A stretch of DNA of 64,000 bases from Nitrospirota bacterium (lineage in GTDB: Bacteria > Nitrospirota > Nitrospiria > Nitrospirales > Nitrospiraceae): assembly GCA_028876065.1 (NCBI GenBank), contig JAGWTI010000004.1, forward strand, positions 3,547 to 67,546, read 5' to 3'. Positions 15,494 to 45,958 of the stretch are shown in pieces. The translations under genes were made by a program, and so were the position numbers. Below the pieces are notes generated by a model. It searched no databases and was not told the origin of the DNA. It saw nothing but the letters and a program-made list of their open reading frames with translations. How positions within the stretch are numbered: position 1 is the first letter of the stretch; the number at the start of each line of letters is the position of its first letter.

Positions 15494-15534
15494 GAGACCG
15501 TCCGAAATAGCCGCCTGAAGTGAGCTGCAATCGC

Positions 15535-15957: not shown

Positions 15958-16039
15958 CGCGAAGACGCGTCCCATCGCTCCCCCGAAGCACGCGCAGCCG
16001 TGCGAGAGCCTCGGCCAGACCGGCAGCGTGGCGGTTTTC

Positions 16040-16887: not shown

Positions 16888-19800
16888 TTACGGCTTGCCC
16901 GCAAACCGTCTATAGAGCGTCGGTATGACGAAGAGCGTGAGTAAGGTGGATGTCATGAGCCCTCCGATCACCACCGTCGCCAACGGGCGTTGCACTTCCG
17001 CGCCCATGCTGTTGGCCAGCGCCATGGGAAGAAAGCCCAGGCTGGCGACCATCGCCGTCATGAGAACCGGGCGCAGACGGTCCATCGTGCCTTGTGTCAC
17101 GGCCTGTTCGATGGGCAGCCCGTCGGCCTCGAGCCGGCGGATGTGGCTGACCAGGACCACGCCGTTGAGGACCGCGATCCCGAACAAGGCGATGAATCCG
17201 ATGGCGGCGGAGATACTGAGCGGGAGCCCGCGGAGCCAGAGAGCCAGGACTCCACCAGACAGGGCCAGCGGCACGTTCAGGAAAATCAGCAGCGCGGGCC
17301 GCAGGGAGCCGAAGGTGACCGACAAGATCCCCACAATCATCAGGAGCGTAGCCGGGACCACGACGGCCAGTCGGCGCGACGCGTCCTGCAAGTGCGCGAA
17401 TTGACCGCCCCACTTGAGTTCGTACCCGATCGGCATCGAGACCGATTCGGCCACCGTTCGCTGCGCCTCCGCCATGAAGCTGCCCAGATCGCGTCCCCGG
17501 ATGTTGCATTCCACGATCGTGCGGCGCTGGACATCTTGCCGGCTCACTTGGGCCGGCCCGGAGGTCACCAGGATCGTCGCCACGCGCGACAGGGGCACCA
17601 GTTCGCCATGCACGGTCGGGATCAGGAGGTTGCCCAAGGCGCCTGGGTCGGCCGACGCCTCTTCGGCTAAGCGGACGACCAGCTCGAACCGTCGGTGCTC
17701 CTGCACCACCGTGCCCACGACGCGGCCCACGCGGGTCACCTGGACCAGATCGAGGACTTCCCCCGCCGTCAAACCATACCGGGCGATCTGATCCCGGTCC
17801 ACGATGACGCGGATCAGGGGCAGGCCGGCGATCTGCTCGACCTTGATGTCCGCCGCGCCTGGGACCCGCTCCAGCGCGCGAGCCACCGCCTCGGCCTTCT
17901 GCTTGAGCACCGCGAAGTCCGGCCCGAAGATCTTGATGGCCAGGTCCGAGCGCGTGCCCGCGATCAATTCGTTGAACCGCATCTCGATCGGTTGCGTAAA
18001 GCCGAGCCCCACACCGGGGACTTCGTTCATGACCGCCGACTGCATGGCGATAATGAGCCCTTCCCGCGTCCGCGCGGTCGTCCAATCCCGGCGGGGCTTC
18101 AGGGTCACGAAGGTATCCGACATCTCCACGCCCATCACATCCGTCGCGACTTCGGGACTGCCGGTTCTCGTGACGATCTGGGTCACCTCCGGGAAGCGAC
18201 GAAGGACCCGCTCCACCTGAAGGGCCGTCGAGACGGATTCGCTGAGCGAGACGCTGGGGAGACGCCATATCTGGATGGCCAGGTCCCCTTCATCCAGCCG
18301 GGGCACAAACTCGATGCCGAGCGTCGTGCCGATGCCGAGACTGGTCAGGAACAGCCCGATGGCCAAGCCGGAGACCCGGTTGGGACGTGTCATCGCCCAG
18401 TGGAGGCATGGGACATAGGCCCGCCGAAGAAGGGCGGTGACCCGTGTTTCCTCCTCGGCCTTCGTGGGGCGGGCGAACCAGAAGGCGAGGACCGGCGTGA
18501 CGGTGACCGCAAGCAGGAGGGAACCGACCAAGGCGAAGATCACGGTCACGGCCATCGGGCGAAACATCTTCCCCTCGATCCCCGTGAGCGTCAGAATCGG
18601 GAGGTACACGAGGACGATGATCCCGACCGCAAAGCCGACCGGGCGCAACACCTCACGGCCCGCCGCGTGAATCGTCGCCAGCTTCTCCTCGGGCGACGCA
18701 GGCCCTTGCCGGGACAGGCGTCGCAGGATGTTGTCGATCATCACGACCGATCCATCCACCAACAGTCCGAAGTCGATGGCGCCGAGACTCATCAGATTCC
18801 CGGAAAGTCCGACCTGGACCATCCCGGTGAAGGCGATGAGCATCGACAGCGGGATGGCCGACGCGACGATCAAGCCGGCGCGGAGATCCCCCAGGAACAA
18901 GAAGAGGACCGCGACGACCAGCAGCCCTCCTTCGAAGAGATTGTTCCGAACGGTTCGAATCACGTTCGAGACGAGCAGGGTCCGGTCATAGTAGGGGACG
19001 ATGACCACGCCGGGCGGGAGCGTGGTCTGGATTTCCCGGACTCTGGCCTTGACGCGCTCGACCACCTGCTGCGCATTCTCCCCGGCGAGCATCTGCACCA
19101 TGCCGATAATCGTCTCGCCCTGTCCCATGGCCGTCGCCGCGCCGATCCGAAGGGCGGGGGCCTCGGTGACTTCGGCCACATCCTTGACGAAGATCGGCAC
19201 CCCGCCGGGCCCATGGTCCACCACGATCCGGACCAAGTCCGCCGTCCGCGTCGCCAACGCTTCCCCCCTGATGAGCAATTGCTCGCGCTGATGTTCGATG
19301 TACCCGCCGCCCACCATCGCGTTGTTCCGTTCCAACGCCTCGAAGACCTGTCGCAGCGACAACCGGTAGGCCAGGAGTTTGGCGGGATCGACGAGGACCT
19401 GGTACTGCTGCGTCTCGCCTCCCCAGATGTTGACCTCGACGACACCGGGAACCGCCCGCAGTCGCATCCCGATGTCCCACTCGAGGAGGGTCCGCAAGGC
19501 CATGGCGCTGTACCCTTCGCCTCGGAGGGTGAACTGGTAGACCTCGCCCAATCCGGTCGTCAGCGGTCCCATGATCGGGCGGCCGTATTCCGGCGGAATG
19601 CGTTCAACGGCTCGGCCGAGGCGTTCGCTCACCAGTTGCCTGGCCCGATAGATGTCCATGTCGTCGCCGAAGATCGCGGTCACCGCCGACAGGCCGTAGC
19701 GCGAAACCGAGCGCGTCTCCCGGAGACCGGGGAGCCCGCTCAGCGAGGCTTCGATCGGGAACGTCACGAACTGTTCGACTTCGACCGGGCCCAGAGCCGG

Positions 19801-19956
19801 CGCGCGGGTGAGAATCTGGACCTGCACCGGCGTCAAGTCCGGCATGGCATCGATGGCGAGATGGGTCATCGACCACAGCCCGATCGTGACGGCCATGAGC
19901 ATCGCGACGAGCGTGAAGAAGCGGTAGCGGAGCGAGAGGGTCAGCACGCGATCCAT
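16888..19956 (-). CDS. czcA: Heavy-metal efflux RND transporter, CusA/CzcA family (1022 aa)
   Basis: Full-length 12-TM RND protein. The TM4 signature 'GAIDFGLLVDGSVVMIDN' is the DFG..DG..(V/I)(E/D)N type of divalent-cation HME pumps. ATG verified at 19956. Confidence 0.9.
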   Translation of the reverse strand: MDRVLTLSLRYRFFTLVAMLMAVTIGLWSMTHLAIDAMPDLTPVQVQILTRAPALGPVEVEQFVTFPIEASLSGLPGLRETRSVSRYGLSAVTAIFGDDMDIYRARQLVSERLGRAVERIPPEYGRPIMGPLTTGLGEVYQFTLRGEGYSAMALRTLLEWDIGMRLRAVPGVVEVNIWGGETQQYQVLVDPAKLLAYRLSLRQVFEALERNNAMVGGGYIEHQREQLLIRGEALATRTADLVRIVVDHGPGGVPIFVKDVAEVTEAPALRIGAATAMGQGETIIGMVQMLAGENAQQVVERVKARVREIQTTLPPGVVIVPYYDRTLLVSNVIRTVRNNLFEGGLLVVAVLFLFLGDLRAGLIVASAIPLSMLIAFTGMVQVGLSGNLMSLGAIDFGLLVDGSVVMIDNILRRLSRQGPASPEEKLATIHAAGREVLRPVGFAVGIIVLVYLPILTLTGIEGKMFRPMAVTVIFALVGSLLLAVTVTPVLAFWFARPTKAEEETRVTALLRRAYVPCLHWAMTRPNRVSGLAIGLFLTSLGIGTTLGIEFVPRLDEGDLAIQIWRLPSVSLSESVSTALQVERVLRRFPEVTQIVTRTGSPEVATDVMGVEMSDTFVTLKPRRDWTTARTREGLIIAMQSAVMNEVPGVGLGFTQPIEMRFNELIAGTRSDLAIKIFGPDFAVLKQKAEAVARALERVPGAADIKVEQIAGLPLIRVIVDRDQIARYGLTAGEVLDLVQVTRVGRVVGTVVQEHRRFELVVRLAEEASADPGALGNLLIPTVHGELVPLSRVATILVTSGPAQVSRQDVQRRTIVECNIRGRDLGSFMAEAQRTVAESVSMPIGYELKWGGQFAHLQDASRRLAVVVPATLLMIVGILSVTFGSLRPALLIFLNVPLALSGGVLALWLRGLPLSISAAIGFIALFGIAVLNGVVLVSHIRRLEADGLPIEQAVTQGTMDRLRPVLMTAMVASLGFLPMALANSMGAEVQRPLATVVIGGLMTSTLLTLFVIPTLYRRFAGKP

Positions 19957-19957
19957 C

Positions 19958-21163
19958 TCACCCTCCCTCGCCCGACTGGATGCGCTCTTTCAGCAGCACG
20001 TTCTTGAGGTCGAAGACGCCGTCGGTGACGACCCGGTCCCCGGCGGTCAGGCCGCTTCTGATTTCGACCCATCCCTCTCCTTCACGACCCACCTCGACCG
20101 GCGCGAAGAGGTAGCCGGCGTCACGCTGGGTGAAGACCCCGCGGGTCTGATCGAGCAACGTCACGGCCGCCGCCGGCACGGCCAGCGTGGGGGAGGCGGT
20201 CACGGCCAGCCGGACCTCCACATATTCCTGCGGCTTGAGACGTCCGTCCTGGTTGGCCACTTCGAACCGCACACGGACCGTCCGTGTCTTCTCGTCGGCG
20301 AGGGGCGAGATGTAGGTGAGGGGCGCGGTGAGCGGCGCGGCGCCTTTGGGCACGATCATGGCGTTGTCGCCCGCGTTGAACCGGCGCGCCTGTTCGATCG
20401 TCAGGCTGGCGAAGATCCACACGTGGCTCGTATCGACGATCTCGAACAGTTCGATGCCCGACGACACCCCTTGCCCGAGCACGATGTGTTGCGCCACCAC
20501 GGTGCCGGCGATCGGCGACTTAATGGTATAGCGATGTCCTTCGACATGCTGGTCCCGCTCCAACTGCTGCAGCTCTCCCGCGGTCATCCCCATGTTCAGC
20601 AGCTTTTCACGGGCATGTTGATAGCGGGCCTTGGTTTCGAGATGACGGCCGCGCTCTTCCACCAGCCGCCGTTCCGTGATGATCTGCTCGGTCCACAATT
20701 TCTGTGCCCGCTGGAAACTGTTTGCGGCCACGTCGGCTTGCGCTTTGGACACGAGATACTCTTGGACCAGTTCGTCCAGCTTCGGCCCTCCGATCGCGAC
20801 GAGCGGCTGCCCGCTGCGGACGTGGTCGCCCAGTTGCACGTGGACCTGCTCCACTTGGCCTTCGATTCGGGAGGTGACTTTTGCGACTTGCTTGAGGTCG
20901 AGGGCCACCTCGCCCGGTGCGGCGACCATCTCGGGAATCGGGCGCATGGCGGCAGCCTCCGTCCGTATCCGGCCGTGAATCGCCGGAGGAGCCTGGATCA
21001 GATGCGGACCCGAATGTCCCGGTCGGGCCGCATGGGGGGGAGCCGTCGCCGGCTCGCCGCTCTGGTTCCCGCAGCCGATCAGCAAGAGGGCCGCCGCCAA
21101 GGCGATCCATCCTCTCCGTGCAATCCGACCGTCGTTCGCGGCGCTCCTGTTGGGCGGGTTCAT
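19958..21163 (-). CDS. czcB: Efflux RND periplasmic adaptor (MFP), CzcB-like lipoprotein (401 aa)
   Basis: The ATG at 21163..21161 overlaps the czcC stop as ATGA. Lipobox 'LLIGC'. Typical barrel-sandwich/hairpin motifs ('V.SRIEG.V..V.V..GD.V..GQPL'). The ORF-track extension to 22102 is rejected. Confidence 0.9.
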   Translation of the reverse strand: MNPPNRSAANDGRIARRGWIALAAALLLIGCGNQSGEPATAPPHAARPGHSGPHLIQAPPAIHGRIRTEAAAMRPIPEMVAAPGEVALDLKQVAKVTSRIEGQVEQVHVQLGDHVRSGQPLVAIGGPKLDELVQEYLVSKAQADVAANSFQRAQKLWTEQIITERRLVEERGRHLETKARYQHAREKLLNMGMTAGELQQLERDQHVEGHRYTIKSPIAGTVVAQHIVLGQGVSSGIELFEIVDTSHVWIFASLTIEQARRFNAGDNAMIVPKGAAPLTAPLTYISPLADEKTRTVRVRFEVANQDGRLKPQEYVEVRLAVTASPTLAVPAAAVTLLDQTRGVFTQRDAGYLFAPVEVGREGEGWVEIRSGLTAGDRVVTDGVFDLKNVLLKERIQSGEGG

Positions 21164-22449
21164 AGGCGTCCCCCCGTGGCGCGTTCCAGCCGGGCCAGCG
21201 CGACCGAGAGTTCGTAGCGCGCCTGCGCATAGTCGAGCTGGATCTGTCGGTAGACCCGCTGCGCGTCCAGCAGGTCCAGCAAATTGGCCGCTCCTTGTTG
21301 AAAACTGAACTGGGCGATCCGAAGGGTCTCCTGCGCCTGTTTGAGGAGCTCCTTCTCGAAGAGATCGATCTGCTCGGCCGCCGTCTGTGCGTCCTGGAAG
21401 TCCTGTTGGATCGCGCGGCCCAGCTCGTTTCGGGTACGGAGCAACTCGGCCTCCACTCGATGCTTCGCCCCCATGGCGGTCGCCACTTCTCCTTGCCGCT
21501 GATACCAGAAGGGGATCGGGAGGCTCACGCCGCCCCCGAAGGCTTCCCGTCCGATCTCCCGCCAGTAGCCGCCATTCACCGTGAGGTCCGGCACCCTGGA
21601 CTGCCGTTCCCGTTCGACGGTGTGGTCGGCTTGCTCCACCGATGACCGTTGGCGTCTGAGGGTCGGATGCCGTTCGAAAGCCAGCGTCGTCAATGCGCCT
21701 GCGTCCATACCCTGCCGGAAGGTCTCGAAGTCCCCTCTGACGGCGAAAGTCCGGCCGAGTGCGCCGGCTGTGACCGTATCCAGCCCGACCCGCGCCACGC
21801 GTATCGCGTTGCGGGAGCGACTCAGGGCCTGATTGGCTTTCATCGCCTCCACATTGGCTTTCATCGCTTCGAACGGCGTGGCGTCTCCGGCGGCCACCCG
21901 GCTCTTGACGATCCGCAAGACGTCCTTCGCCATGGCGAGGTTCTGCTCCGCGGTCTCGGACTGCCGCTGCGCCAGGAGCAACTGGTAGAAGGCCAATTTG
22001 ACGTCGGCGATCAGGGTGAGGCGCGCTTCCTCCACGCCGGCGCCGGCGCCGGCCACCCCGGCCTCCGCGGCGCGCTGCCGGGCGGCGCGCTTGGCCGGCC
22101 ATTCGATCGGCTGGCCGACCGTAACGTTGTATTCGGTGATCGACCGGATCGTGTCGGGATCGTTGCCGATCCCCGCGCGCCCTGTATCCCGCAACAACCC
22201 GCGCCCGCTATAGCCGCCCACGTTGGGGTTGGGGTAGGCACCCGCAGCCATCTGTTGCCCATGGCTCTGCTCCATGACGCTCATGGCCCCCGCGATGGCA
22301 GGGTGGCGTTCCAGGGCCAGGTCGATCACGGCGTCGAGGGTGTAGGAAGGAGGGCCGGGCTCGCCCGCATACGCTTCCGCCATGAGTCCGAAGGCGGTGG
22401 CGGCTGACACGCCAAGCCACACGAGAGGTTTCAACCGTTGGTATGACAT
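21160..22449 (-). CDS. czcC: TolC-family outer membrane efflux protein, CzcC-like (429 aa)
   Basis: ATG at 22449 with a GAGGA SD. Signal peptide '..AATAFGLMAEAYA'. OEP repeats are present. Confidence 0.85.
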   Translation of the reverse strand: MSYQRLKPLVWLGVSAATAFGLMAEAYAGEPGPPSYTLDAVIDLALERHPAIAGAMSVMEQSHGQQMAAGAYPNPNVGGYSGRGLLRDTGRAGIGNDPDTIRSITEYNVTVGQPIEWPAKRAARQRAAEAGVAGAGAGVEEARLTLIADVKLAFYQLLLAQRQSETAEQNLAMAKDVLRIVKSRVAAGDATPFEAMKANVEAMKANQALSRSRNAIRVARVGLDTVTAGALGRTFAVRGDFETFRQGMDAGALTTLAFERHPTLRRQRSSVEQADHTVERERQSRVPDLTVNGGYWREIGREAFGGGVSLPIPFWYQRQGEVATAMGAKHRVEAELLRTRNELGRAIQQDFQDAQTAAEQIDLFEKELLKQAQETLRIAQFSFQQGAANLLDLLDAQRVYRQIQLDYAQARYELSVALARLERATGGRL

Positions 22450-22566
22450 TGCGTTCCTCACGTAGAGAGCCGCCGCGCGGGAGCGGACGGACGACGCCGT
22501 CCTGCTCGCGGGCCGCCTGCGATCCACAAGAAAGGCTTGTGCTAATTCAGGAAGCGTGAAGTTGTG

Positions 22567-23013
22567 CTAGGCGAGCAAGCAGGGCGGTGCACGCGACGAA
22601 CGGTTGGCCAGCAAGAGAACCGATTGAGGAGAGTCCCGGAACGGATCGGAGCGGGCTGAGCCGCTCGGTCGCGGCAACGGGGGCGGTGTGGCCGAGGCCA
22701 AGGTGTCCGCGAACGCCGCTTTCCCGAGATAACGATCCCCGGAGACAGCCAGGGAAAATCCGATCTCAGGGTGGCCCAGGTCATGTGCCACGTGGCTGAT
22801 GGCGGCGATGGTCGCAGCCGAGGCATGGTGCGTTGCGTATTCACAGGGGAGGTCGGAGGAAAACACCGTATGGGCGACGCCGCCGTGGGTGTGCCCTGCG
22901 TCACCGTGACGGTGATCCGTTTCGGGATGAACGTGGACGAGCGGGACGACAACCATCCACAGCATCGCCCACAAGAGGACTGCTTTTCGCAAGATGAGCG
23001 CTCTGTTCAGCAT
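22567..23013 (-). CDS. His-rich membrane-anchored hypothetical protein (148 aa), possible metal-binding accessory of the czc operon
   Basis: ATG at 23013. An N-terminal TM helix is followed by 'HVHPETDHRHGDAGHTHGGVAH...HHAS...HVAHDLGH'. The perfect palindrome GGCAATATTGCC (23026..23037) lies 13 nt upstream. Confidence 0.5.
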   Translation of the reverse strand: MLNRALILRKAVLLWAMLWMVVVPLVHVHPETDHRHGDAGHTHGGVAHTVFSSDLPCEYATHHASAATIAAISHVAHDLGHPEIGFSLAVSGDRYLGKAAFADTLASATPPPLPRPSGSARSDPFRDSPQSVLLLANRSSRAPPCLLA

Positions 23014-23110: not shown

Positions 23111-24550
23111 TCAAAACTCCCGGAAGCCGCTTCCCGTCGAATAGGAAACGGCCACAGTGCTGGCTTTGTAAGCATAGTTGGAGTCGGCGAGCCGGACTTC
23201 CGCGACGACGAGATCGGTGGTAGCCGTCGTCACGTCGACGATCGAGGAGAGTCCTGCACGGTAACGTTCCCTGGCCAGTGTGAGCGCTTCCCGCGCAGCG
23301 GTCACTTCCTGCTCAGCCACCGTGATCTGCTGCTTGGCGGTCTGAAGGGTCAGATAGGATTCCGTTACCTCCAGCACCACCCGGTTGGCCAGATCAGTCT
23401 TCTTTTGTTCTTCCTTGTATTTTTGCTGTCGAGCCTCTGCTACGCGGTTCTCGATCAGGAAGCCGGTGAAGAGGGGGACGGAGAGCGTGGCGGCCGCTCC
23501 CCACCAGGCCTGGGAAAAACCGGGCGTTGCGCCGGGGTCTTGGTTGGTCGGCGCGTCGCTGAAATGGATGACGCCGCCCATGCCGGCCGCGGAGATGGTC
23601 GGCAGGTAGAGGGCTTGGGCCGATTTGAGCTGCGCTTCAGCCGAGCGGATGCGATCTGCGCTGCCCAGCAGCTCGGGTCGTTGTGAGAGCCCTAGCTGGG
23701 TCAGGGACTCCAGTGTGTCGATCGAGGAGAGAAGGACCGGGACATCTTCGAGCGTGTAGTCCGCGGGTCCACGTACGCCCATGGCGTTGTTCAGGGCGGC
23801 GAAGGAGGCGTGGAGATTGCTTTTCACCTGGACCAGCAAGACCTCAGCGTTCCGTAACTCCACGGAAATCAAATCCAGATCCAGTTTGGATTTTAACTGG
23901 TGTGCGTAGAGGGTGGCCACTTGGTCGCGGATCTTGCCGCGTTCCCGCACGGTCTCTTGCGCGATTTGCAATAGACGCTTGTGTTTGAGGCAACTCAGGT
24001 AAGCCTGCTGCACGGTCAGGATCACGAGGGCCTTGTGGGTGAGGATGTTTTTCTCGGCCGCCGCCGTGGTGGCCATCTCAGCCAGGACCTTGTTGGCGGT
24101 CTGACCGAAATCGTAGATCAACTGATTCGCAATCACACCTGCGTTCTGGATGTAGGATGTCGGGTGGTTCTGGGCGCCGGCAATGTTGAATGCGCTGAGC
24201 GGACGGATGTTGCCGCCGGTCTGAATCGCATAGGCGTCGATTTGCGGATAGTACTTGGCCTTGGCTTGTTGCGTCACCGCGTCGGCCGCCATGGCAGTTT
24301 CCTGGGATTTTTTTAAGATGGGGTGCTGCTCGATGCCGATCTGGATCGCGGTCTTATAGCCGAGGAAGGCGCCGGCTGCCTTTGGCGGCGTTGATGGTGC
24401 TTGCCCTGTTGCCCGGCTTTCCGAGGCAATGGTCTTTGTCGGTGGACCGGGGGCTTGCCCAGCCGACTCGCCCGTTGTTCCGACCGTGAGACAGACAACG
24501 AGCAGGCATCGCCACAGCGTTTGAGGCAGACGGAAGAAGGCCGGCATCAT
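23111..24550 (-). CDS. TolC-family outer membrane factor, paralog 3 of 3 (about 479 aa)
   Basis: ATG at 24550 or 24547, 4 nt after the stop of paralog 2. It has a signal peptide and shares blocks with the other two paralogs ('KALVILTVQQAYLSCL', 'HQLKSKLDLDL', 'FAALNNAMG'). Confidence 0.9.
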   Translation of the reverse strand: MMPAFFRLPQTLWRCLLVVCLTVGTTGESAGQAPGPPTKTIASESRATGQAPSTPPKAAGAFLGYKTAIQIGIEQHPILKKSQETAMAADAVTQQAKAKYYPQIDAYAIQTGGNIRPLSAFNIAGAQNHPTSYIQNAGVIANQLIYDFGQTANKVLAEMATTAAAEKNILTHKALVILTVQQAYLSCLKHKRLLQIAQETVRERGKIRDQVATLYAHQLKSKLDLDLISVELRNAEVLLVQVKSNLHASFAALNNAMGVRGPADYTLEDVPVLLSSIDTLESLTQLGLSQRPELLGSADRIRSAEAQLKSAQALYLPTISAAGMGGVIHFSDAPTNQDPGATPGFSQAWWGAAATLSVPLFTGFLIENRVAEARQQKYKEEQKKTDLANRVVLEVTESYLTLQTAKQQITVAEQEVTAAREALTLARERYRAGLSSIVDVTTATTDLVVAEVRLADSNYAYKASTVAVSYSTGSGFREF

Positions 24551-24554
24551 TGAG

Positions 24555-25937
24555 TCAGTAGCGACCATATTCGGCTCCCGTGGCGTAGGCGAGAGCGGAA
24601 TTGCCGGCCAGGTACCCGTACTGAGCCTCGGCCAGGCCGGTCTCCGCATTCAACAGGTCGACGGTTGCCGTGGTCACATCCAGGATGGTAGACAGGCTTG
24701 CCTTATACCGTTCGCGTGCCAGCAGCAGCGCTTCACGTGCATGCGCGACCCGCTCTTGCGCCACTTTAATTTGTTGCTCGGCGGTGAGCCGGTTCAGATA
24801 GGCTTTAGCCACCTCCAAGACTACGTCGTTGGCAATGACCCGCGTCGTGGCCTGGGCGACTCCCTTATTTGCTTCGGCCTGCTCGACCTCAGCCTCAATG
24901 CGGAAGCCGGTAAACAGCGGGGTTGTGGAGGAGAAACCCGCGCCCCACCAGCCAAGCTGTGAGCCAGGGTTGTTCGGGTTGCCGTTTGCGCTGACGACTT
25001 CCTGGCGGGCCCACCACCCGTATCCGGACGCGCCGACTCCGGTGATACTGCCGTAATTCAATGCACGGGCTGCCTTCAGCGCTTCCTCCGCTGCCTGGGT
25101 GCGGTCCTTGCTGCCGAGCAGCTCCGGCCGCCGGTCGAGGGCGTCCCGGAACAGCGGCTCGATCGGCGGCGCAGAAGATACCGTTGGCTGGATTTCATCC
25201 AGGATGTACTGTATCGGCCCTTGCCGGCCCATCGCCGCGTTCAGGGCGGCAAAGGCGGCTACTAGGTCGTTCTTGGCCTTGATGAAATCCAGTTCGGCCT
25301 TGGCTGTCTCGACGGTGGCCAAGTCCAAATCCAGTTTGGAGCGGAGCTTGTGCCGGTACATGGATTCGGCCTGTTCCCGGATCAGCCGACGCTCCGCCAG
25401 AGTCTCCTTTGTAATCGCCAAAATTCTCTGTTGTTTGAGGCAGGCAAGGTAGGCCTGCTCCACGTTTAAAATCACCAAGGCTTTGCTCGTGAGCACTAGT
25501 TTCTCGGCTGAGGCGGTGCGCGATTTATTCGCGAGAAGTTTGTGGGCTGTCTGCCCAAAGTCGGTGATCAGGAGCTCTACACGTACTCCTGGATCGGTCA
25601 AATAGTTCGTGGGCTTGGGCAACGATCCGGAGATGCCCAGATTGGAGAGCACCCGTGTATTGCCGAGCGAGTTGGCTACAATGCCGCTGACTTGGGGATA
25701 ATCCACGGCGGCAATCTGTTTGCCCACGGCCTCTGTTTCGAATACGCCGTGCTGAGCCGCCTGGATCAAAGGGTGCTGCTTGACGCCGTTCTTGATCGCA
25801 TCCTCCCAGGTGAGCTTGGCCGCAGTTGGTCCTGTCGGTTCTGCGCCAGCCGTTGCCGGTGCCTGAGCATGAGCGACGGGTGCTTCGTTCCACAGCAGGA
25901 GAGCCAGCCACAAGGCTATCATAATGGGTTGTCGCAT
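24555..25937 (-). CDS. TolC-family outer membrane factor, paralog 2 of 3 (460 aa)
   Basis: ATG at 25937, 40 nt after the stop of paralog 1. Signal peptide '..WNEAPVAHA'. Shared blocks 'KALVILNVEQAYLACL', 'HKLRSKLDLDL', 'FAALNAAMG'. Confidence 0.9.
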   Translation of the reverse strand: MRQPIMIALWLALLLWNEAPVAHAQAPATAGAEPTGPTAAKLTWEDAIKNGVKQHPLIQAAQHGVFETEAVGKQIAAVDYPQVSGIVANSLGNTRVLSNLGISGSLPKPTNYLTDPGVRVELLITDFGQTAHKLLANKSRTASAEKLVLTSKALVILNVEQAYLACLKQQRILAITKETLAERRLIREQAESMYRHKLRSKLDLDLATVETAKAELDFIKAKNDLVAAFAALNAAMGRQGPIQYILDEIQPTVSSAPPIEPLFRDALDRRPELLGSKDRTQAAEEALKAARALNYGSITGVGASGYGWWARQEVVSANGNPNNPGSQLGWWGAGFSSTTPLFTGFRIEAEVEQAEANKGVAQATTRVIANDVVLEVAKAYLNRLTAEQQIKVAQERVAHAREALLLARERYKASLSTILDVTTATVDLLNAETGLAEAQYGYLAGNSALAYATGAEYGRY

Positions 25938-25977
25938 GAAGGGCCTGCTCCTCTCAATGGGGCGATGGAGATCGGGG

Positions 25978-27471
25978 CTAGAACTTCTGGTAGTCCTGTC
26001 CCGCCGCATAGGCCACGAGAGCCTGGCTTTTCTTGTAAACGTACTGGGCCTCCGCGAGGCGGGACTCCGCGTCGAAGAGCGCGGTGGCGGCCCTGACCAC
26101 TTCTACGATCGCACTGAGCCCGAGGCGATACCGTTCCTGGGCTAGGTTCACGGCTTCCCTCGCGAAAGCCACGCGCTCTTGCTCCAATACAATCTGTTCG
26201 GCGGCCGTCGTCTGGTTGAGGGATGCACGGATGACTTGCAGAATCACTTCGTTGGCGAGGTTCTGAATCTCCTGCTCGGTCTCGCCTTTACGGTGGCCCG
26301 CTTCGACGATCTGGTTTTGAATCTTGAACCCGGTGAATAACGGGAGCCGGGCTGAGACCCCGAAGCCCCAGAGTGGAGCCACTCCGTCCTGGGGAATGCC
26401 ACCGTCATGTACATCGCCGTATTTCGTGATGCCGATGGTGCCTACTGTCGAGATCTCTCCTAAATTGAACGCTCTGACCTCCTGAAGCAGTTCCTGCGTG
26501 GCCACCAAACGGTGTTGTTCTCCCAACAATTCAGGCCGGTTCTTCAGCCCTTCCTCAACCAACTGGTCCATCGCGGGCGGAGGCGCGGTTGCCATCGAGA
26601 CTTTTTCCAGTTCGTACCGATTAGGTCCTTCAACCCCCATCGCGTTGTTCAGGGCAGCGAAAGCCTGCGACAGGTCGTTCTGCGCCTTGATCAAGGCCAA
26701 CTCGGCGTTCTTGACCTGAACCGTCACGAGGTCCAGGTCCAGCTTCGACTTGAGCTGGTGTTTGGTCAAGGCCTGTAGCTGTTTCTGGATAAGCGCGCGC
26801 TTCTCCAGATTTTCTGCGGCGATTTCGACGAGACGCTGCTGCATGAGGCAGGTGAGGTAGGCCTGTTGGACGTTCAGGATGACTAGGGCCTTGTTCGTGA
26901 GAATGTCCTTCTCCGTCGCGGTTTCCGTCGCCTGGCTGGCCAGGATGTGATGGGCGGTCGCGCCGAAGTCCGTGATCAGCTGGTTCAGGAGCAACCCTCC
27001 CGTCATCATGTTCTGGTTGTGTTTGGGCAACGCGCCAGCTAGGGCATAGCCCCGGCCGCCGCCGTATTGATGTAACTCGGCTCGGTTGCGGAGGCCGCGG
27101 AGGAAGCTGGATCCCAAGTCGCCGGTGGCATGGATGTTGGCGCCATCGCTGCTCAAGACTCTGATCGAGCCGGTTCCTCCGGCGACAGAGGCTTCGAGCC
27201 AGGGATATTGCCTGCCCTGGTCCTGCTTGGTTTCGGCCGCTGCACTCTTTAAGGTGGCCCGTGCTCGTTCAATCAGTGGATGTTTTTCCAAACCGGTCCC
27301 AATCGCCTCCCGCAGGCTGAGGAAGGGTGCCGGAGATGTGGCTGGCTGGGGTGCCGGATTCTTGCCGGAGGACGATGCGGCGTTGGGGGCCGAGTCGTTC
27401 GGCTGTGCCAGTGCGGAAACAGGATGCCAGGTCGCGAGGAACAGCAGGCATATGTAGAAGACGACCGGCAT
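25978..27471 (-). CDS. TolC-family outer membrane factor, paralog 1 of 3 (497 aa)
   Basis: ATG at 27471 with a strong AAGGAGG SD. Signal peptide '..ATWHPVSALA'. Shared blocks 'KALVILNVQQAYLTCL', 'HQLKSKLDLDL', 'FAALNNAMG'. Confidence 0.9.
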   Translation of the reverse strand: MPVVFYICLLFLATWHPVSALAQPNDSAPNAASSSGKNPAPQPATSPAPFLSLREAIGTGLEKHPLIERARATLKSAAAETKQDQGRQYPWLEASVAGGTGSIRVLSSDGANIHATGDLGSSFLRGLRNRAELHQYGGGRGYALAGALPKHNQNMMTGGLLLNQLITDFGATAHHILASQATETATEKDILTNKALVILNVQQAYLTCLMQQRLVEIAAENLEKRALIQKQLQALTKHQLKSKLDLDLVTVQVKNAELALIKAQNDLSQAFAALNNAMGVEGPNRYELEKVSMATAPPPAMDQLVEEGLKNRPELLGEQHRLVATQELLQEVRAFNLGEISTVGTIGITKYGDVHDGGIPQDGVAPLWGFGVSARLPLFTGFKIQNQIVEAGHRKGETEQEIQNLANEVILQVIRASLNQTTAAEQIVLEQERVAFAREAVNLAQERYRLGLSAIVEVVRAATALFDAESRLAEAQYVYKKSQALVAYAAGQDYQKF

Positions 27472-27557: not shown

Positions 27558-28775
27558 TCAATACTTCTGGCTGGCCGACTTGCCGGCCGGAAGGTCGTAC
27601 GCGGATGCGGTCACGGCTTGTCCGTCTTGAAGGTTGCTTTTGCCAACGATGACGACATCTTCGCTGCCGGTGAGTCCTTCGATAACCTCGACCCAGAGCC
27701 CGTCATCGATACCGGTCTTGATCGGGACGCGGCGGACCTTCCCGTTTTCGACCACAAAGACCGATTTGGTATTCCCATTGCTCCCCGGCGTGATCGCGGC
27801 TGGCGGAAGGATCAAGGCATTTTGGTGCCGCTCCAGATAAAGTGTCGCATTGATAAACATGCCGGGCTGGAGCCGGTGGCTCTTGTTGGGCAGGTCGATC
27901 TCCACAAGAAGCGTACGGGTGGATGGGTCCAACGCTCCGGTCGTACGGGTAATGGAGCCTTTGATCTCCTGGCCTGGCAGTTCCTTGACTGACAGGGTCG
28001 CTGGGATGCCCGGCATGGCCAGTGCTGAAGATTCCTGGGGAACACTCACGTATATTCGAACCGTGTCTATATCCATCATGGTAAACAGGGGATTCGCCTG
28101 CGTCGATGATCCAGTGGCGGCTTGGATCAGCGTTCCCGGGTCGGCAAAGCGGGCCGTGATGGTGCCGGCGAAAGGCGCGGTGACCCTTGTATACTCCAGG
28201 AACGTGCGCCGCCGTTCCATTAACTGCTTGGCTCCTTCGGCTTCTGCCTCCGCCACGTCCACGTCCTGTTTCGCGATCACGTCAGGATTTTCCTTCCAAA
28301 CGCCGAAGAGCCGCTCGTAGGTCAATTTCTTAATGGCATACTCCGCCTCGGCTTGTTGGGCTTGATCCAGGATTTCCGGTGCGTCGATCAGGGCCAGGAG
28401 CTGCCCTTTCTTGACCGTGTCGCCCTTGTCGAACCCGATCCATTTTAAGAAGCCGGACACTTTGCCATAGAGAGTAGCCTGGTACCAGGGCGAGATATTA
28501 GCGGGTAAGGTGAGGGTGCGCGACACATCCCGGCGCTGGGGTTTAGTGACCTGGACCAGATGGGTTGCCGGCTGAGCGCCGGACGGGGCGGTGGCTTTGG
28601 CCACCTCAGGCGCAGAGCCGGTCTCATGCTGGCCTTGGAAGAAGACAAAGGCTGCCACTACGAGAAAGAGCCCCGCTGCAGCAATTAGGATGGCCTTGAG
28701 CCGGTTTGGCTGGGGACTGTGGCCCAGCTCCGATGAATCAAGCGGTGATACCTCGTGCCGGTCCTGCTCAGTCAA
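27558..28775 (-). CDS. Efflux RND periplasmic adaptor subunit (MFP), membrane-anchored (405 aa)
   Basis: The start codon is TTG (28775..28773), preceded by AAGGAGG at 6 nt spacing. There is no in-frame ATG before the TM helix. 'GFDKGDTVKKGQLLALIDAPE' is a typical lipoyl-like motif. Confidence 0.9.
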   Translation of the reverse strand: MTEQDRHEVSPLDSSELGHSPQPNRLKAILIAAAGLFLVVAAFVFFQGQHETGSAPEVAKATAPSGAQPATHLVQVTKPQRRDVSRTLTLPANISPWYQATLYGKVSGFLKWIGFDKGDTVKKGQLLALIDAPEILDQAQQAEAEYAIKKLTYERLFGVWKENPDVIAKQDVDVAEAEAEGAKQLMERRRTFLEYTRVTAPFAGTITARFADPGTLIQAATGSSTQANPLFTMMDIDTVRIYVSVPQESSALAMPGIPATLSVKELPGQEIKGSITRTTGALDPSTRTLLVEIDLPNKSHRLQPGMFINATLYLERHQNALILPPAAITPGSNGNTKSVFVVENGKVRRVPIKTGIDDGLWVEVIEGLTGSEDVVIVGKSNLQDGQAVTASAYDLPAGKSASQKY

Positions 28776-28822: not shown

Positions 28823-31800
28823 TCACTGCCCCTCGCGAGCGGCAGTGTCCTCCGCCTGAATGGCCGAGCCTCGTCGAGCGAGGGAGTGCAGGACAGGGAT
28901 AAACAGCAAAGTCATCACGGTGGATACGGACAGTCCCCCGATGACCGCTCGTGCCAGCGGCATGTTGGCTTCACTGCCTTCTCCGATACCCAAGGCCATC
29001 GGCGCCAGGCCGAAGATCGTGGCGAGCGATGTCATCAGGATTGGACGGATGCGAAGCCGCCCTGCGTCCACCACGGCCTCCTCCAAAGAGGCCCCCTCCC
29101 TCAGTCGCTGGTTCGCGAAGTCCACCAGCAAAACGCTGTTGGAGACGACGATCCCGATCATCATCAGTGTCCCGATGAGCGACTCGACGTTAAGCGAGGT
29201 ATTAGTGAGGAGGAGCATCCAGATGACCCCGATGAGCCCCAGCGGGACCGCAAACATGATGACGAAGGGGTCTAGGTAGGAGCGGAAGAGGCCGACCATG
29301 ACCAGATAAATGAGGACAATTGCCAAAGGGAGTCCTCCGCCGAATCCGATCAACGCCTGTCTCATGCTGTCGACTTCCCCCTTGAAAGAAACCACCACGT
29401 CCTTGGGCAAATCCAACGTGGCCAACGCTTCCTCGATCTTGCCAGCTACCCGCCCCAAATCATTACCCGGTACGTCTACCAAGACGTCCATGGTCCGTTG
29501 GAGATTGTAATGATCTATCGTTTCAGGTCCGTTCTTCCTGGTCACGTCGATGATATCGCGGAGCACGACAGGTGAACGGGCTGCGCCATTGGTGTGAGGA
29601 AGGATGGGACTTTCAGGGAAAGGGGTCTGTTGCAGGGCCAGGGAGCTGCCATGGGCCGTAGAGGAACTGACGGTCGAGGCTTCCTTCACATTCGCGCCGA
29701 CGAGCGGGATATTGAGAAAATCCTCGAACTGGACCAGCATTTGTTCCGGATACTGGGTCACCACGAAGTAGGCGTTGTTGGTCTTGGAGTCGATCCAGTA
29801 ACCTGGGTTGAGCTGGATATTGGAACTCAAGCCGGTGATCACATCCGTGACGACGTTTTGTGCATTGAGGCCCAGATATGCGGATTTAGCACGGTCCACG
29901 GTCATGTGTAGTTCCGGATAGGACATGCCTTGGCGGACCTGTGCATCCACCGTCCCCGGGATCCTGACCGCCAATTCCTTGATACGTGCTGCCACATCGG
30001 CCACTTCATGCAGATGAGGTCCGCTGACCTTGATGTCAATCGGCGCAGGCAGACCGAAATTCAGCACGTCGCTAACGATTCCGCCGGTCTGGAAGGAGTA
30101 CTTCAGGCCGGGCATCTCCTTGTGTAGCCGTTCCCGAAGCTGGTCCACTACATCGTCGGTCCCTACCTTATGGTCTTGCTTGAGGCTGACTAGGATAAAC
30201 GCCTGATGAGGGCCCACCACCGGTGTATAGAGCACCATCCATCCTTGCGGAACGCCGATGTTGGCGACGATCTGGTTCAGATCATCCGGAGGGATCACTT
30301 GGCGGATGAGCTCTTCGATCCGCGCCACGATCGCCTCGGTCTTCTCCACTCTCATCCCCTCCGGCGCCGACACGTTTAGAATGAACTGGCCTGCGTCGAC
30401 CTTGGGAAAAAACTCGGTGGCCAGGCGCGGCGCCATCATGACTGAGACGGCAAAAATGGCCGCGACCGTCACAATCACGATGGCTTTGTGATGCAGGCAC
30501 CAGCGCAAAACCTGCACATAGCGCGTAACGAATGGATCGAAGAGGTTCAGCTTGTGCCATAGGGCTGTCAGCCCCGAAGTCTTTTCTTTGGCGTGCCCCG
30601 CATGCCCGCCGTGTTTACCTTTGAGCAGATAGGCCAGGCAGACCGGCGCTACGCTCAGGGCGCCCGCATAGGAGGCCATCATGGCGTAGCCCACGGAGAG
30701 GGCCAGGGGTACAAAGAGAAACTTGATGATGCCCGTAAAAAAGGCGATGGGCAGAAAGACGAGGAAGACGGTGATCGTGATCACCAGCATCGGAAGCGCG
30801 ACTTCGGTGGTTGCGTCACCAGCCGCCTCGTAGGAAGATTTGCCCATGTCCAGGTGCCGGTGGGTGTTCTCGACCACCACGATCGCGTCGTCCACCAGAC
30901 GACCGACCGCCAGCGCCAGACCGCCTAGTGTCATGATGTTGATCGTGTGGCCGGTGAAGTAAAGCCCGATGAAGGCGGCCGTGACCGAGAGGGGGATCGC
31001 CAGCGCGATGATGACTGTGTAGCGGAGGCTACCCAAGAACAGTAAGACCATCAAGCAGGCGAGGCCACCACCTAGGAGGCCTTCATGCTCCAGGGTTTGG
31101 ATCGATTGACGAATGTAGAGTGACTGGTCGAACACCAGCTTGACATCCAATCCGGCCGGCAATCCGATCAACTTCGGGATCGCCGCTTTGACTCCGTCGA
31201 TGACTTCCAACGTGTTGGCGCCGGCTTGCTTCATCACCGGAATGTAGACGGCTCGGTGGCCATCGATGCGCACCACATTCGTCTGGATCATGGCTGAATC
31301 GACGGCCTTGCCGACTTCCTTCAATGTGACCGGCGTTCCGTTGACGATCTTGATCGGGATCTGGTTCATGTTGTCTACGACTCGGATCATGCTGTTGGTG
31401 TAGACATTGTAGTCGAAGTCGCCGATCTTCACGTCACCGGCAGGGAGTAGGAGACTCTGGGTATTGACGGCATTGACGATGTCGCCGGCCGAGATACCGC
31501 GGGCCAGCATCCGCTCCCGGTCCAGGAAGACCGTGATCTGACGGACCGTGCCGCCGAAAGTCGGGGGCAATGAAATGCCGGGTACGCCTCCGAACTGAGG
31601 CCGCACGGTGAAATAGGCCAGGTCCCGCACCTCTTTCTCGGTCATGGTCTCGCTGCTGACGGTGAGGTCCGCAATGGGGAGACTGGTGGCGCCGAACTTG
31701 ATGATGATCGGCGGGAAGACGCCTTGCGGCAGATAGCGAAGTGTGCTGTAGGTCAGGCTGGTGATCTCGGCGACGGCCGCATTTACGTCATAGGACGGTT

Positions 31801-32080
31801 GAAAGTAAATCTTGACGAGGCTAACGCCGGGCAGGGAGCGGGATTCGATGTGTTCGATATATGACGCCTGCAAGTAGAGTTGTTCTAGGCGTAGGGTGAT
31901 GGCCCCTTCGACTTCGGACGGCCCCATGCCTTTGTAGAAAGTGACGACGGCCACGACGGGCAGGTTGATTTCCGGGAAGATGTCCACGACCATCTTTTGA
32001 TAGGACACCACGCCCAGGATAATGACGATCAGGCTGATTGCCACCACTGCGAAGGGATTTTTGAGCGATGCACGGACCAT
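28823..32080 (-). CDS. RND efflux permease, HAE1-type TM4 signature, paralog 1 (1085 aa)
   Basis: ATG at 32080; the ORF-track start at 32083 is a TTG one codon upstream. 'LALAVGRLVDDAIVVVEN'. His-rich central loop 'GKHGGHAGHAKEK' (coded near 30592..30621). Confidence 0.95.
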   Translation of the reverse strand: MVRASLKNPFAVVAISLIVIILGVVSYQKMVVDIFPEINLPVVAVVTFYKGMGPSEVEGAITLRLEQLYLQASYIEHIESRSLPGVSLVKIYFQPSYDVNAAVAEITSLTYSTLRYLPQGVFPPIIIKFGATSLPIADLTVSSETMTEKEVRDLAYFTVRPQFGGVPGISLPPTFGGTVRQITVFLDRERMLARGISAGDIVNAVNTQSLLLPAGDVKIGDFDYNVYTNSMIRVVDNMNQIPIKIVNGTPVTLKEVGKAVDSAMIQTNVVRIDGHRAVYIPVMKQAGANTLEVIDGVKAAIPKLIGLPAGLDVKLVFDQSLYIRQSIQTLEHEGLLGGGLACLMVLLFLGSLRYTVIIALAIPLSVTAAFIGLYFTGHTINIMTLGGLALAVGRLVDDAIVVVENTHRHLDMGKSSYEAAGDATTEVALPMLVITITVFLVFLPIAFFTGIIKFLFVPLALSVGYAMMASYAGALSVAPVCLAYLLKGKHGGHAGHAKEKTSGLTALWHKLNLFDPFVTRYVQVLRWCLHHKAIVIVTVAAIFAVSVMMAPRLATEFFPKVDAGQFILNVSAPEGMRVEKTEAIVARIEELIRQVIPPDDLNQIVANIGVPQGWMVLYTPVVGPHQAFILVSLKQDHKVGTDDVVDQLRERLHKEMPGLKYSFQTGGIVSDVLNFGLPAPIDIKVSGPHLHEVADVAARIKELAVRIPGTVDAQVRQGMSYPELHMTVDRAKSAYLGLNAQNVVTDVITGLSSNIQLNPGYWIDSKTNNAYFVVTQYPEQMLVQFEDFLNIPLVGANVKEASTVSSSTAHGSSLALQQTPFPESPILPHTNGAARSPVVLRDIIDVTRKNGPETIDHYNLQRTMDVLVDVPGNDLGRVAGKIEEALATLDLPKDVVVSFKGEVDSMRQALIGFGGGLPLAIVLIYLVMVGLFRSYLDPFVIMFAVPLGLIGVIWMLLLTNTSLNVESLIGTLMMIGIVVSNSVLLVDFANQRLREGASLEEAVVDAGRLRIRPILMTSLATIFGLAPMALGIGEGSEANMPLARAVIGGLSVSTVMTLLFIPVLHSLARRGSAIQAEDTAAREGQ

Positions 32081-32230
32081 CAACGTTTCCGATCAGCTAT
32101 GAACCGATCGCCTCTTGTGTTGGCGTCGGGCGTAAGAAGGTGTAAGCCATGCGTGCCGCATTATCAGGCATTCTTTCATCTCCGAATGAACGTTACGGCA
32201 GGGATAGTCATTAGAGGCGGGGATGGCCCT

Positions 32231-32563
32231 TTAGATGAGTAATTCGCATGGGATGGCGAAGAGTTTTATGGGGACCTTGCCCCATTGCGTAGACGGTTTC
32301 AACGTACTCATATGCTGCTGCTGGGCTAAGTGGTCGTGGAACTTTTTCAATCTTTGCACAACCCGTTCAGCCTGCTCTTCCCCCATGGCGGCAAGGACCA
32401 TGGCATTGTATCCCGGCCAACCGAATGACTGGCCTGCTGCTCCGGTTTCGCCCATGCCGAAGACTTTGGGGACTTCGGTAAAGGCTTTGACGTCAAGTTC
32501 TTCTAGTAACTGCAAGAGGTCGTGTTCCAGCGGCTGGCGGAAGATGAGGAGCAGCATCTTCAT
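32231..32563 (-). CDS. PII-like fold small protein (110 aa), possibly DUF3240-like, between the two RND genes
   Basis: The beta-alpha-beta-beta-alpha-beta pattern is read by eye: 'KMLLLIF', 'LEHDLLQLLEEL', 'FTEVPKVFGMG', the loop 'ETGAAGQSFGWPG', 'YNAMVLAAM', 'EEQAERVVQRLKKF', 'IKLFAIPCELL'. ATG at 32563; alternative ATG at 32602. Confidence 0.5.
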   Translation of the reverse strand: MKMLLLIFRQPLEHDLLQLLEELDVKAFTEVPKVFGMGETGAAGQSFGWPGYNAMVLAAMGEEQAERVVQRLKKFHDHLAQQQHMSTLKPSTQWGKVPIKLFAIPCELLI

Positions 32564-32643
32564 GGCCGCTGTCTCACATCTACGTCGCAGGGGGCGTCGC
32601 ATTCCGACTTCTGTCCGAATTTTCGAATCACTACGATCGCCAT
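32560..32643 (-). CDS. 27-codon micro-ORF (MAIVVIRKFGQKSECDAPCDVDVRQRP) translationally coupled to the PII-like gene
   Basis: Translated by hand. The ATG at 32643..32641 is immediately preceded by TAGGAGG, with only 2 nt of spacing. Its stop TGA (32562..32560) overlaps the PII-like ATG as ATGA. It falls below the ORF-track length cutoff. Confidence 0.25.
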   Translation of the reverse strand: MAIVVIRKFGQKSECDAPCDVDVRQRP

Positions 32644-45955: not shown

Positions 45956-45958
45956 GAT

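Follow-up and report, generated by a model that had tools for sequence, protein, structure and literature searches.

Three tandem TolC-family genes in a Nitrospira efflux operon: a credible candidate for an exit duct of three different subunits

Results

In the 64,000-nucleotide stretch of Nitrospirota DNA that we analysed (the window), three genes for TolC-family outer-membrane factors (OMFs) lie head to tail on the minus strand: OMF-A (25978..27471, 497 aa), OMF-B (24555..25937, 460 aa) and OMF-C (23111..24568). ORF calls give all three as complete, and each protein matches the Pfam family OEP (PF02321) in two stretches with E-values of 4e-40 to 5e-53 (4.3e-40 for A, 3.1e-51 for B and 4.7e-53 for C) and scores of 138-180 bits against a cut-off of 22. 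The preliminary description of this DNA had reported three complete head-to-tail OMF genes on the minus strand, and both the reading frames and the Pfam matches agree with it.

OMF-C has two alternative start codons, ATG 24568 (485 aa) and ATG 24550 (479 aa). A GGGAG Shine-Dalgarno sequence lies 6 nt before ATG 24568 and none precedes ATG 24550; the first is therefore the more likely start, with which gene C would overlap gene B by 14 nt. The same 14-nt overlap recurs in many orthologous loci and in an independent gene call, which places a 32 nt gap and a 14 nt overlap within the array. Of the spacings given earlier, the 40 nt between A and B stands, whereas the 4 nt between B and C holds only with the start at 24550, and the 14-nt overlap is likelier. 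An AGGAGG Shine-Dalgarno sequence precedes the OMF-A ATG at 27471, and GAGAGGAG is found upstream of the OMF-B ATG at 25937. On the coding strand inside the A-B-C array we found no terminator-like site, and the one promoter-like site, within gene C, was not above chance.

Upstream of gene A lies a gene for a single periplasmic adaptor (MFP; 27558..28775, minus strand, 405 aa), which matches Pfam HlyD_D23 and NCBIfam TIGR01730 RND_mfp, the latter at 205 bits against a cut-off of 95. The gene before it, RND1 (28823..32083, minus strand), encodes an inner-membrane transporter of ~1085 aa. It matches Pfam ACR_tran (E = 6.5e-207) and falls below all NCBIfam RND cut-offs, for the multidrug and the CusA/CzcA models alike. 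Its TM4, read from the translation, is VDDAIVVVEN, the DD of which we take to be the AcrB-like D407/D408 pair. The likely first gene of the operon (32231..32602, minus strand) encodes a small P-II-like 'PG0541 family transporter-associated protein' (Pfam P-II; NCBIfam NF045581 at 48.8 bits, cut-off 45). Homologs of this protein precede the RND gene in loci L009, L025, L046, L047 and L050, and also in L130, a relative with one OMF.

A second RND paralog, RND2 (33382..36666, minus strand, 1094 aa), is 75% identical to RND1. The preliminary description had correctly placed an MFP gene and an RND gene directly upstream of the array but had overlooked RND2 further upstream. Most orthologous loci have a single RND gene upstream of MFP, and the number of RND genes differs between lineages while the trio stays intact; judged from these loci, RND2 appears to be a lineage-specific extra copy outside the conserved module. 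We considered an RND1/RND2 heterotrimer that would match a heteromeric duct and rejected it, since RND2 is lineage-specific and not in the conserved system.

A czcCBA-like operon and a His-rich ORF adjacent to the pump operon prompted the idea of a metal pump. Neither the TM4 DD motif nor the profile scores support an HME assignment, and we set this idea aside. The His-rich ORF is not conserved at other loci.

When compared with curated subfamily models, A, B and C scored 105-144 bits on NCBIfam TIGR01844 (TolC subfamily, cut-off 225) and 63-65 bits on NF007002 (TolC equivalog, cut-off 495). All three are superfamily members outside the curated TolC subfamilies. The OMF-B sequence is identical to an NCBI entry named 'TolC family protein [Nitrospirota bacterium]'. 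We found that its AF2 model (pLDDT 80.8) has the canonical TolC topology: four beta-strands, an equatorial domain and two long hairpins, H3/H4 and H7/H8. In Foldseek comparisons the model matched TolC, ST50, OprM, CusC, VceC, OprN and MtrE with query-normalised TM-scores of 0.66-0.72, and E-values against TolC, ST50, OprM and CusC were 1e-18 to 1e-20. The structure model is that of B alone; by alignment with B, OMF-A and OMF-C would be expected to share the TolC protomer fold.

The three proteins are 43% (A/B), 41% (A/C) and 46% (B/C) identical to each other; the czcC-type OMF encoded in the neighbouring operon shares only 22-25% identity with them. Long sequence blocks had earlier been quoted as shared among the three, and these blocks were found in our alignment. 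Judged by eye, the N-terminus of OMF-A shows a hydrophobic core and then ALA before Q, that of OMF-B a hydrophobic core and then AHA before Q, and the putative export signal of OMF-C is less canonical than these two. None of the three has a lipobox, and TolC likewise lacks one.

We then compared the locus with related genomes, using a relatives scan that yielded at least 600 matched stretches and at least 300 encoded relatives, the best 80 of which were kept. The window shares the gene order RND-MFP-A-B-C with 29 other Nitrospira-type loci. Every locus with a full-length triplet (29/29, and the window as well) carries exactly three copies, arranged A-B-C, and two or four copies were found in none. 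Among the 30 complete loci there was no clean loss of A, B or C. In one MAG (L002) the C gene carries a deletion of ~30 aa and a frameshift, with A and B intact; other apparently absent copies stem from contig ends or from frameshifts in nanopore assembly. The RND gene is conserved upstream of MFP-A-B-C, preceding MFP. RND and MFP lie directly upstream wherever the contig extends beyond A, and MFP adjoins A in all complete loci. The exception in both respects is L020, in which the RND-MFP pair is inverted and downstream and A-B-C are still together. The preliminary description had proposed looking for the triplet, in order and with its MFP and RND genes, in related genomes, and it is conserved in the 29 other loci as in the window. 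Gain and loss of A, B and C independently of one another, which had been named as evidence against a joint duct, was not seen in the loci examined. By contrast, in ~95 loci from other phyla with OMFs of this subfamily, only one OMF gene lies beside the pump genes; tandem copies are therefore not the norm.

To place the copies relative to each other we built an OMF tree with our own neighbour-joining code and 200 bootstrap replicates. The ortholog clades of A, B and C were recovered in 199, 198 and 199 of 200 replicates, and the clade uniting them had 81-91% support. Its sister group consists of singleton OMFs, among them that of L130, which has a single OMF in a P-II-RND-MFP-OMF operon; one branch further out lies P0130, likewise the only OMF of its operon (RND-MFP-OMF). 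Because the closest outside relatives have the same operon with one OMF, the tree shows one ancient triplication to be the source of A, B and C, and we infer that the single-OMF operon is the ancestral state.

Each of A, B and C has a dN/dS of 0.07-0.20, indicating purifying selection, and dS between clades is above 1. The three copies evolve at equal rates, with mean ortholog identities of 0.64, 0.64 and 0.67 for A, B and C, and they diverge symmetrically from the singleton sister group (0.38, 0.37 and 0.40). The distance matrices of the three correlate pairwise with r = 0.95-0.97, and no gene conversion among A, B and C was detected. These results bear out the earlier view of an old duplication without decay, as the copies are diverged, intact and each under purifying selection. 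The combination of age, intactness and selection on each copy speaks strongly against decay and simple redundancy, and by these sequence criteria A, B and C are expected to be non-redundant. The earlier alternative of interchangeable ducts fares badly, since the dN/dS values, the co-retention and the absence of detected gene conversion all speak against it.

The same data weigh on the idea that A, B and C are redundant and retained for dosage, or that they are decaying and only one still works. Tandem duplicates often arise for dosage, and the damaged C gene of L002 could be seen as decay. However, dosage copies would tend to stay alike, whereas these are 41-46% identical without gene conversion; dN/dS is 0.07-0.2 in all three; and no copy has been lost in the 30 complete loci. 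The comparative data largely refute this explanation, and we give it hardly any weight.

We next asked where the paralogs differ. The periplasmic tip motifs QLKSKLDLD and RERY..L..I are retained in A, B, C and the singletons. H4 and upper H3 are 41-46% identical between paralogs, and the packing surfaces of the helical barrel therefore probably remain cross-compatible among A, B and C. The beta-strands are just 5-12% identical. Extracellular loop L1 is 30-51 aa long in A orthologs versus 18 aa in B and C, and loop L2 has 12 aa in A, 16 in B and 15 in C.

Conserved paralog-specific residues occupy 15 columns only, mostly in strands and loops, and H7, H4 and H2 are not enriched in them. Their small number and their lack of enrichment on the helices expected to form the interface would count against a duct in which A, B and C are mixed. 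The expected inter-protomer bands, H7(i)-H4(i+1) and S5-S1, presume the helix neighbour order of TolC. Covariation was scored as mutual information with APC over 30 concatenated A-B-C triplets in nine paralog combinations; at the Neff of 15.7, even the intra-chain control hairpins H3/H4 and H7/H8 did not rise above the cross-chain background.

The high conservation of H3, H4 and the tips between paralogs, together with the few paralog-specific interface residues, would also suit promiscuous mixing, in which homo- and heterotrimers form statistically and neither stoichiometry nor order is set, much as the porin paralogs OmpC and OmpF mix. This form of co-assembly gives no obvious reason for retaining three genes under purifying selection in ~30 lineages with dS > 1, and we think it improbable.

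No OMF-OMF fusion was found among the best 150 matches from 1.84 billion representatives, all of which had one matched stretch. One of these 150, a protein of 938 aa, joins the C-terminal half of an RND to an OMF.

Discussion

Tripartite efflux pumps have a central role in resistance and secretion in bacteria, and the duct through which they discharge is regarded as a symmetric homotrimer. The operon described here is a credible candidate for the first exit duct made of three different subunits. Co-assembly of A, B and C, with its stoichiometry and subunit order, is inferred from genome comparison and alignment. That the three assemble into one outer-membrane exit duct we hold to be an even proposition, a case that includes promiscuous mixing; that they form an obligate 1:1:1 ABC heterotrimer with a fixed subunit order is a more tentative proposal.

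Our model is as follows. An ancestral operon of the form (P-II-like)-RND-MFP-OMF would have had one OMF gene, which triplicated once in an ancestor of this Nitrospira clade. A, B and C would be produced together from one mRNA by translational coupling, exported via Sec and assembled as a TolC-type trimer of mixed composition, with 1:1:1 (A:B:C) the likeliest ratio. Through its conserved helix-turn-helix tips this trimer would dock on the one MFP that serves the neighbouring RND pump. Several observations argue for such a mixed duct: copy number and order are fixed, against a background of single-OMF loci, and go back to one event; the trio stays together even where the RND-MFP pair is inverted; the short gaps and the overlap point to coupled expression; all three copies are under purifying selection and evolve alike; the docking tips are conserved with only one MFP to receive them; the helices are probably cross-compatible; and heteromers are known for the other two pump components and for porins.

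The principal alternative is that A, B and C form three specialised homotrimers (A3, B3 and C3) with roles of their own, which share an operon owing to their tandem origin. The preliminary description had stated that OMFs are described as homotrimers, and indeed all solved OMFs and PDB matches that we found are homotrimers of one sequence. Four tandem OMFs of T. pallidum have been interpreted as separate trimers, the strongest paralog-specific features are extracellular (L1, L2 and the strands with 5-12% identity), and purifying selection on each copy would fit separate trimers equally well. On the other hand, overlapping frames without an internal promoter leave no means of using the ducts condition-specifically, and three ducts with like docking tips would compete for one MFP and usually one RND. 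Nor would separate homotrimers lead one to expect exactly three copies in every lineage, never two or four, or a divergence that is symmetric and not that of one conserved and two fast copies. We consider separate homotrimers less likely than a mixed duct, yet a serious alternative.

If the mixed ABC duct is real, it would be the first known case of different subunits making up an outer-membrane factor. Its pore and surface would be asymmetric, with a long loop on A and short loops on the other two subunits. It would offer a natural asymmetric channel in which to study gating, adaptor docking and the BAM-dependent assembly of a shared barrel. It would also show cleanly how tandem duplication can turn a homomer into a heteromer that becomes entrenched, here after one triplication that was fixed and then retained throughout a whole Nitrospira radiation. 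With ~30 orthologous triplets and single-gene sister operons, the system is well defined. Should A, B and C prove to be separate trimers, the array would be of modest interest, as a curiosity in how nitrite oxidisers specialise their ducts.

A, B and C have their family and fold in common with E. coli TolC, ST50, OprM, CusC, VceC and SilC. Sequence identity is only ~18-22%, and each solved OMF is a homotrimer from one gene, whereas the present array has three genes that are conserved together. At the first tip, A, B and C have QLKSKLDLD as opposed to a VGL-type turn. The gate residue R367 of TolC presumably has no equivalent in A, B and C.

The closest relatives outside the three clades are the singletons. 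L130 and L132 have the same unusual order, (P-II-like)-RND-MFP-OMF, as is found here, and L026, P0124, P0125 and P0128 (the OMF of L130) share the tips QLKSKLD and RY.LGLSSIVEV with A, B and C. Unlike the window, L130, L132, L026, P0124 and P0125 have one OMF gene instead of three.

In the literature searched we found no paper on a heteromeric or heterotrimeric OMF or TolC, in keeping with the earlier remark that no characterised heterotrimeric duct was known, and the one relevant case of tandem TolC paralogs in it was the array of T. pallidum. There, four tandem OMF genes, TP0966-TP0969, belong to the tp0959-0972 MacAB operon; the paralogs are 30-40% similar and cotranscribed directly after the pump and adaptor genes (PMC8407342). 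They were modelled as four separate homotrimers said to 'function in parallel', and heteromers were not considered (PMC8407342). The T. pallidum array differs from ours in having four copies and an ABC (MacB) pump, against three copies and an RND pump, and its copy number therefore does not fit 1:1:1. It also qualifies the earlier statement that pump operons normally carry zero or one OMF, which is not absolute.

Mixed trimers are known among porins, where OmpC and OmpF (and PhoE) of E. coli form them when co-expressed (PMC5056734). Each porin subunit is a complete barrel, whereas three OMF subunits share one 12-stranded barrel and one channel, and a mixed OMF would therefore have an asymmetric pore. 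The OmpC and OmpF genes are, moreover, unlinked and differently regulated, unlike the A-B-C array.

The nearest parallels lie in the other pump components. MdtB/MdtC is a heterotrimeric RND and TriA/TriB are two different MFPs (PMC8277102); in both, tandem paralogs of a normally homo-oligomeric component lie in one operon and form a hetero-oligomer. An outer-membrane-factor counterpart is described neither in the review text examined nor in the literature searched. MdtB/C is the inner-membrane component and TriA/B the periplasmic one, whereas A-B-C is the outer-membrane component. The A-B-C array resembles MdtBC and TriAB in that component paralogs occur in one operon and, by co-retention and dN/dS, appear to be non-redundant. 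If A, B and C do form a heteromeric duct, it would complete the set with MdtB/C as the RND and TriA/B as the adaptor.

Three OMF genes follow an RND and a single MFP gene

We found that the minus strand from 32602 to 23111 carries one closely packed gene set. It consists of a small P-II-like 'PG0541 family transporter-associated' gene (32602..32231), an RND inner-membrane transporter gene (32083..28823; ACR_tran, E = 6.5e-207), a single membrane-fusion protein (MFP) gene (28775..27558; TIGR01730, 205 bits against a cut-off of 95) and three TolC-family outer-membrane factor (OMF) genes, named in order of transcription OMF-A (27471..25978; 497 aa), OMF-B (25937..24555; 460 aa) and OMF-C (24550 or 24568..23111; 479 or 485 aa). 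Open reading frames, Pfam matches and coordinates bear out the preliminary description of three complete tandem OMF genes beside an RND and an MFP gene.

Start codons of A, B and C were assessed from ribosome-binding sites, which supported the starts previously set for A and B. The C gene also stood, with its start more likely at 24568 than at the proposed 24550: GGGAG lies 6 nt upstream of 24568, and the ATG at 24550 has no Shine-Dalgarno sequence. Read from there, C has a 14-nt overlap with the end of B, and the two reading frames probably overlap. On the coding strand within the OMF array we found no terminator-like sites and one promoter-like site, inside gene C, which is within chance expectation. 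Apparently overlapping reading frames and the absence of internal promoters sit poorly with condition-specific use of the three genes.

A second RND gene (36666..33382, minus strand) lies further upstream. It shares 75% identity with the RND of the pump and lacks an MFP or OMF gene of its own; the P-II-like gene and a 115-aa ORF lie between the two. Since most orthologous loci have a single RND, the second one is taken as a recent lineage-specific duplicate. By analogy with MdtB/C it might form mixed RND trimers, or it might be an alternative transporter. Immediately downstream of the OMF array is a separate czcCBA-like operon (16888-22527, minus strand) with its own OMF (22527..21160), MFP (inside 22102..19958) and RND (19956..16888). 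Ahead of it lies a His-rich 148-aa ORF (HVHPETDHRHGDAGHTHGG; 22567-23013, minus strand) that has no Pfam match and is not conserved at the other loci. A CHASE3 hybrid kinase (13685-15991, minus strand) lies downstream of the czc-like operon, and at 44567-49123 (minus strand) a sigma-54-dependent response regulator adjoins a large CHASE3/PAS histidine kinase. Upstream of the pump at L130, a homologous locus with a single OMF, there are likewise a histidine kinase and a sigma-54 regulator. These kinases and regulators may control the pumps.

A, B and C are divergent members of the TolC superfamily

Each of the three proteins matches Pfam OEP twice (E = 4e-40 to 5e-53). Pairwise identity is 43% for A/B, 41% for A/C and 46% for B/C, compared with 22-25% to the czcC-type OMF encoded in the neighbouring downstream operon, and the sequence blocks quoted earlier as common to the three are present. 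In an AlphaFold2 model (pLDDT 80.8), B shows the topology of a canonical TolC protomer, with elements in the order H2, S1, loop L1, S2, long H3, tip, H4, equatorial domain, H6, S4, loop L2, S5, long H7, tip and H8. Using Foldseek, this model matched TolC (E. coli), ST50, OprM, CusC, VceC, SilC, OprN and MtrE with TM ~0.7 and 18-22% identity. The best match in a profile search of PDB sequences was TolC (E ~1e-19), and all PDB matches were homo-oligomers of one sequence. Scores of A, B and C fall under the cut-offs of the curated NCBIfam TolC and NodT models, which indicates that they are divergent superfamily members; public annotation reads 'TolC family protein' and nothing more specific.

The triplet is conserved in relatives

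The window comes from an uncultured genome of the Nitrospirota/Nitrospira type. A pattern scan across GTDB species, at one genome each, gave 45 loci and a metagenome scan gave 80 further loci (the best 80 of at least 300 relatives). Gene arrangement was determined by tblastn of the window proteins against all of these loci and then audited. Among them A, B and C were all full length in 29 loci as well as in the window, in the order A-B-C every time, and RND and MFP lay directly upstream of A wherever the contig reaches, except at L020. The proposed check, that relatives keep the triplet in the same order with the same MFP and RND genes, was therefore positive. At L020 (9896-17481) A-B-C is intact, and RND and MFP are found as a pair downstream of the trio, on the other strand and convergent with it; a rearrangement split the trio from the pump genes, with A-B-C staying together. 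On a Nitrospira sp. NS4-type contig, an independent gene caller gave an RND of 1086 aa and an MFP of 383 aa. The OEP genes that it called there encode 473, 462 and 479 aa and overlap by 32 nt and 14 nt.

Seemingly absent copies coincide with contig ends in every case but L022, a frameshift in a nanopore-based MAG, and L002 (3169-4352; a groundwater MAG). At L002 A and B are complete, and the C ortholog has a frame change and lacks ~30 residues equivalent to C 108-137, from strand S1 to loop L1; its other 342 codons are intact, with no further decay. Either the assembly is wrong here or C has suffered a recent lesion or loss, and a recent loss would make L002 the one candidate exception to co-retention among the listed loci. 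That the three are interchangeable ducts is very unlikely given that, this candidate apart, no copy is ever lost. In ~95 loci of other phyla with the same OMF subfamily, a single OMF adjoins the pump genes, and none has a tandem pair.

The three genes probably arose from one ancestral OMF

In neighbour-joining trees (200 bootstraps) the orthologs of A, B and C formed clades with support of 199/200, 198/200 and 199/200. A+B+C was monophyletic in 182/200, or 162/200 with extra outgroups, and its sister group is made up of single-copy OMF genes. One of these singletons, L026, is flanked by unrelated genes; P0128, the OMF of L130, lies within a P-II-RND-MFP-OMF operon, and P0130, one branch further out, within an RND-MFP-OMF operon. 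The singleton operons and ABC monophyly together suggest that the ancestor was the same unusual RND-before-MFP operon with one OMF. This OMF was triplicated once, and the arrangement was frozen thereafter. The P-II-like gene, found upstream of the RND also at L009, L025, L046, L047, L050 and L130, is common to triplet operons and the single-OMF sister operon.

Values of dN/dS were 0.07-0.20 for each gene over all informative pairs. Mean ortholog identity was 0.640 for A, 0.642 for B and 0.668 for C, and the three distance matrices correlate (r = 0.95-0.97). Paralog identity within one genome (0.40-0.41) equals that between genomes, so gene conversion is absent. Measured against the singleton sister group, the copies have diverged symmetrically (A 0.38, B 0.37, C 0.40); none kept the ancestral sequence with the other two drifting. 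Purifying selection, divergence and retention together leave no room for copies that are redundant or in decay.

Extracellular loop lengths are paralog-specific and constant per ortholog group (L1: A 30-51, B 18, C 18 aa; L2: A 12, B 16, C 15 aa). By eye, the L026 singleton has short loops as in B and C, which makes A the probable derived subunit. The share of columns that are both identical and conserved in all three paralogs peaks in H4 (46%), followed by upper H3 (41%) and the surroundings of both periplasmic tips (32-36%), and is smallest in the beta-strands (5-12%). The tip motifs QLKSKLDLD and RERY..L..I also occur in the singletons, which suggests that A, B and C all keep the ancestral docking surface for the single MFP.

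Co-assembly and separate ducts

The 1:1:1 heterotrimeric duct of the preliminary description is partly supported by the comparison across relatives, and we regard it as a well-motivated hypothesis and not a result. Co-expressed paralogs descended from a homomer generally keep their cross-interaction. For this reason, and because every lineage has as many OMF copies as the oligomer has subunits, the trio stays a unit even where the pump genes relocate, the three genes are expressed in a coupled way, the copies have diverged symmetrically, their docking tips and helical packing surfaces are still alike, and heteromeric RND and MFP precedents are established, we favour co-assembly into a mixed trimer, to which we give an even chance. 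Within co-assembly the larger share goes to an obligate 1:1:1 ABC duct, held tentatively, and the smaller to looser mixing of A, B and C, which is improbable.

Covariation analysis by MI-APC over 30 triplets had no power, since its intra-chain positive controls did not exceed background. There are few paralog-specific residues, and they do not cluster on the helices presumed to lie between protomers. No natural OMF-OMF fusions were present among the best 150 matches of 1.84 billion representative proteins. One protein of that library, P0154 (938 aa), joins the C-terminal half of an RND to a full OMF, and may be a gene-calling artefact across neighbouring genes or a true fusion.

Comparison with known systems

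The RND-MFP-A-B-C gene arrangement is a new and well-conserved form of a familiar type of system. Phrase and keyword literature searches turned up neither a heteromeric TolC-family duct nor any account of this Nitrospira OMF triplet. In T. pallidum a MacAB pump is followed by four OMF genes that are cotranscribed; the authors modelled these as four separate trimers (PMC8407342). This precedent speaks for A, B and C as three specialised homotrimers made together by happenstance, which we consider somewhat unlikely. For the mixed trimer there are counterparts in other components: among the operons in the available portion of a 2021 Chem Rev review, some have two periplasmic adaptors or two transporters and none has several OMFs, and MdtB/C is a heteromeric RND and TriA/B a heteromeric MFP (PMC8277102). 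In the outer membrane itself, OmpC/OmpF mixed trimers are an example of paralog co-assembly (PMC5056734).
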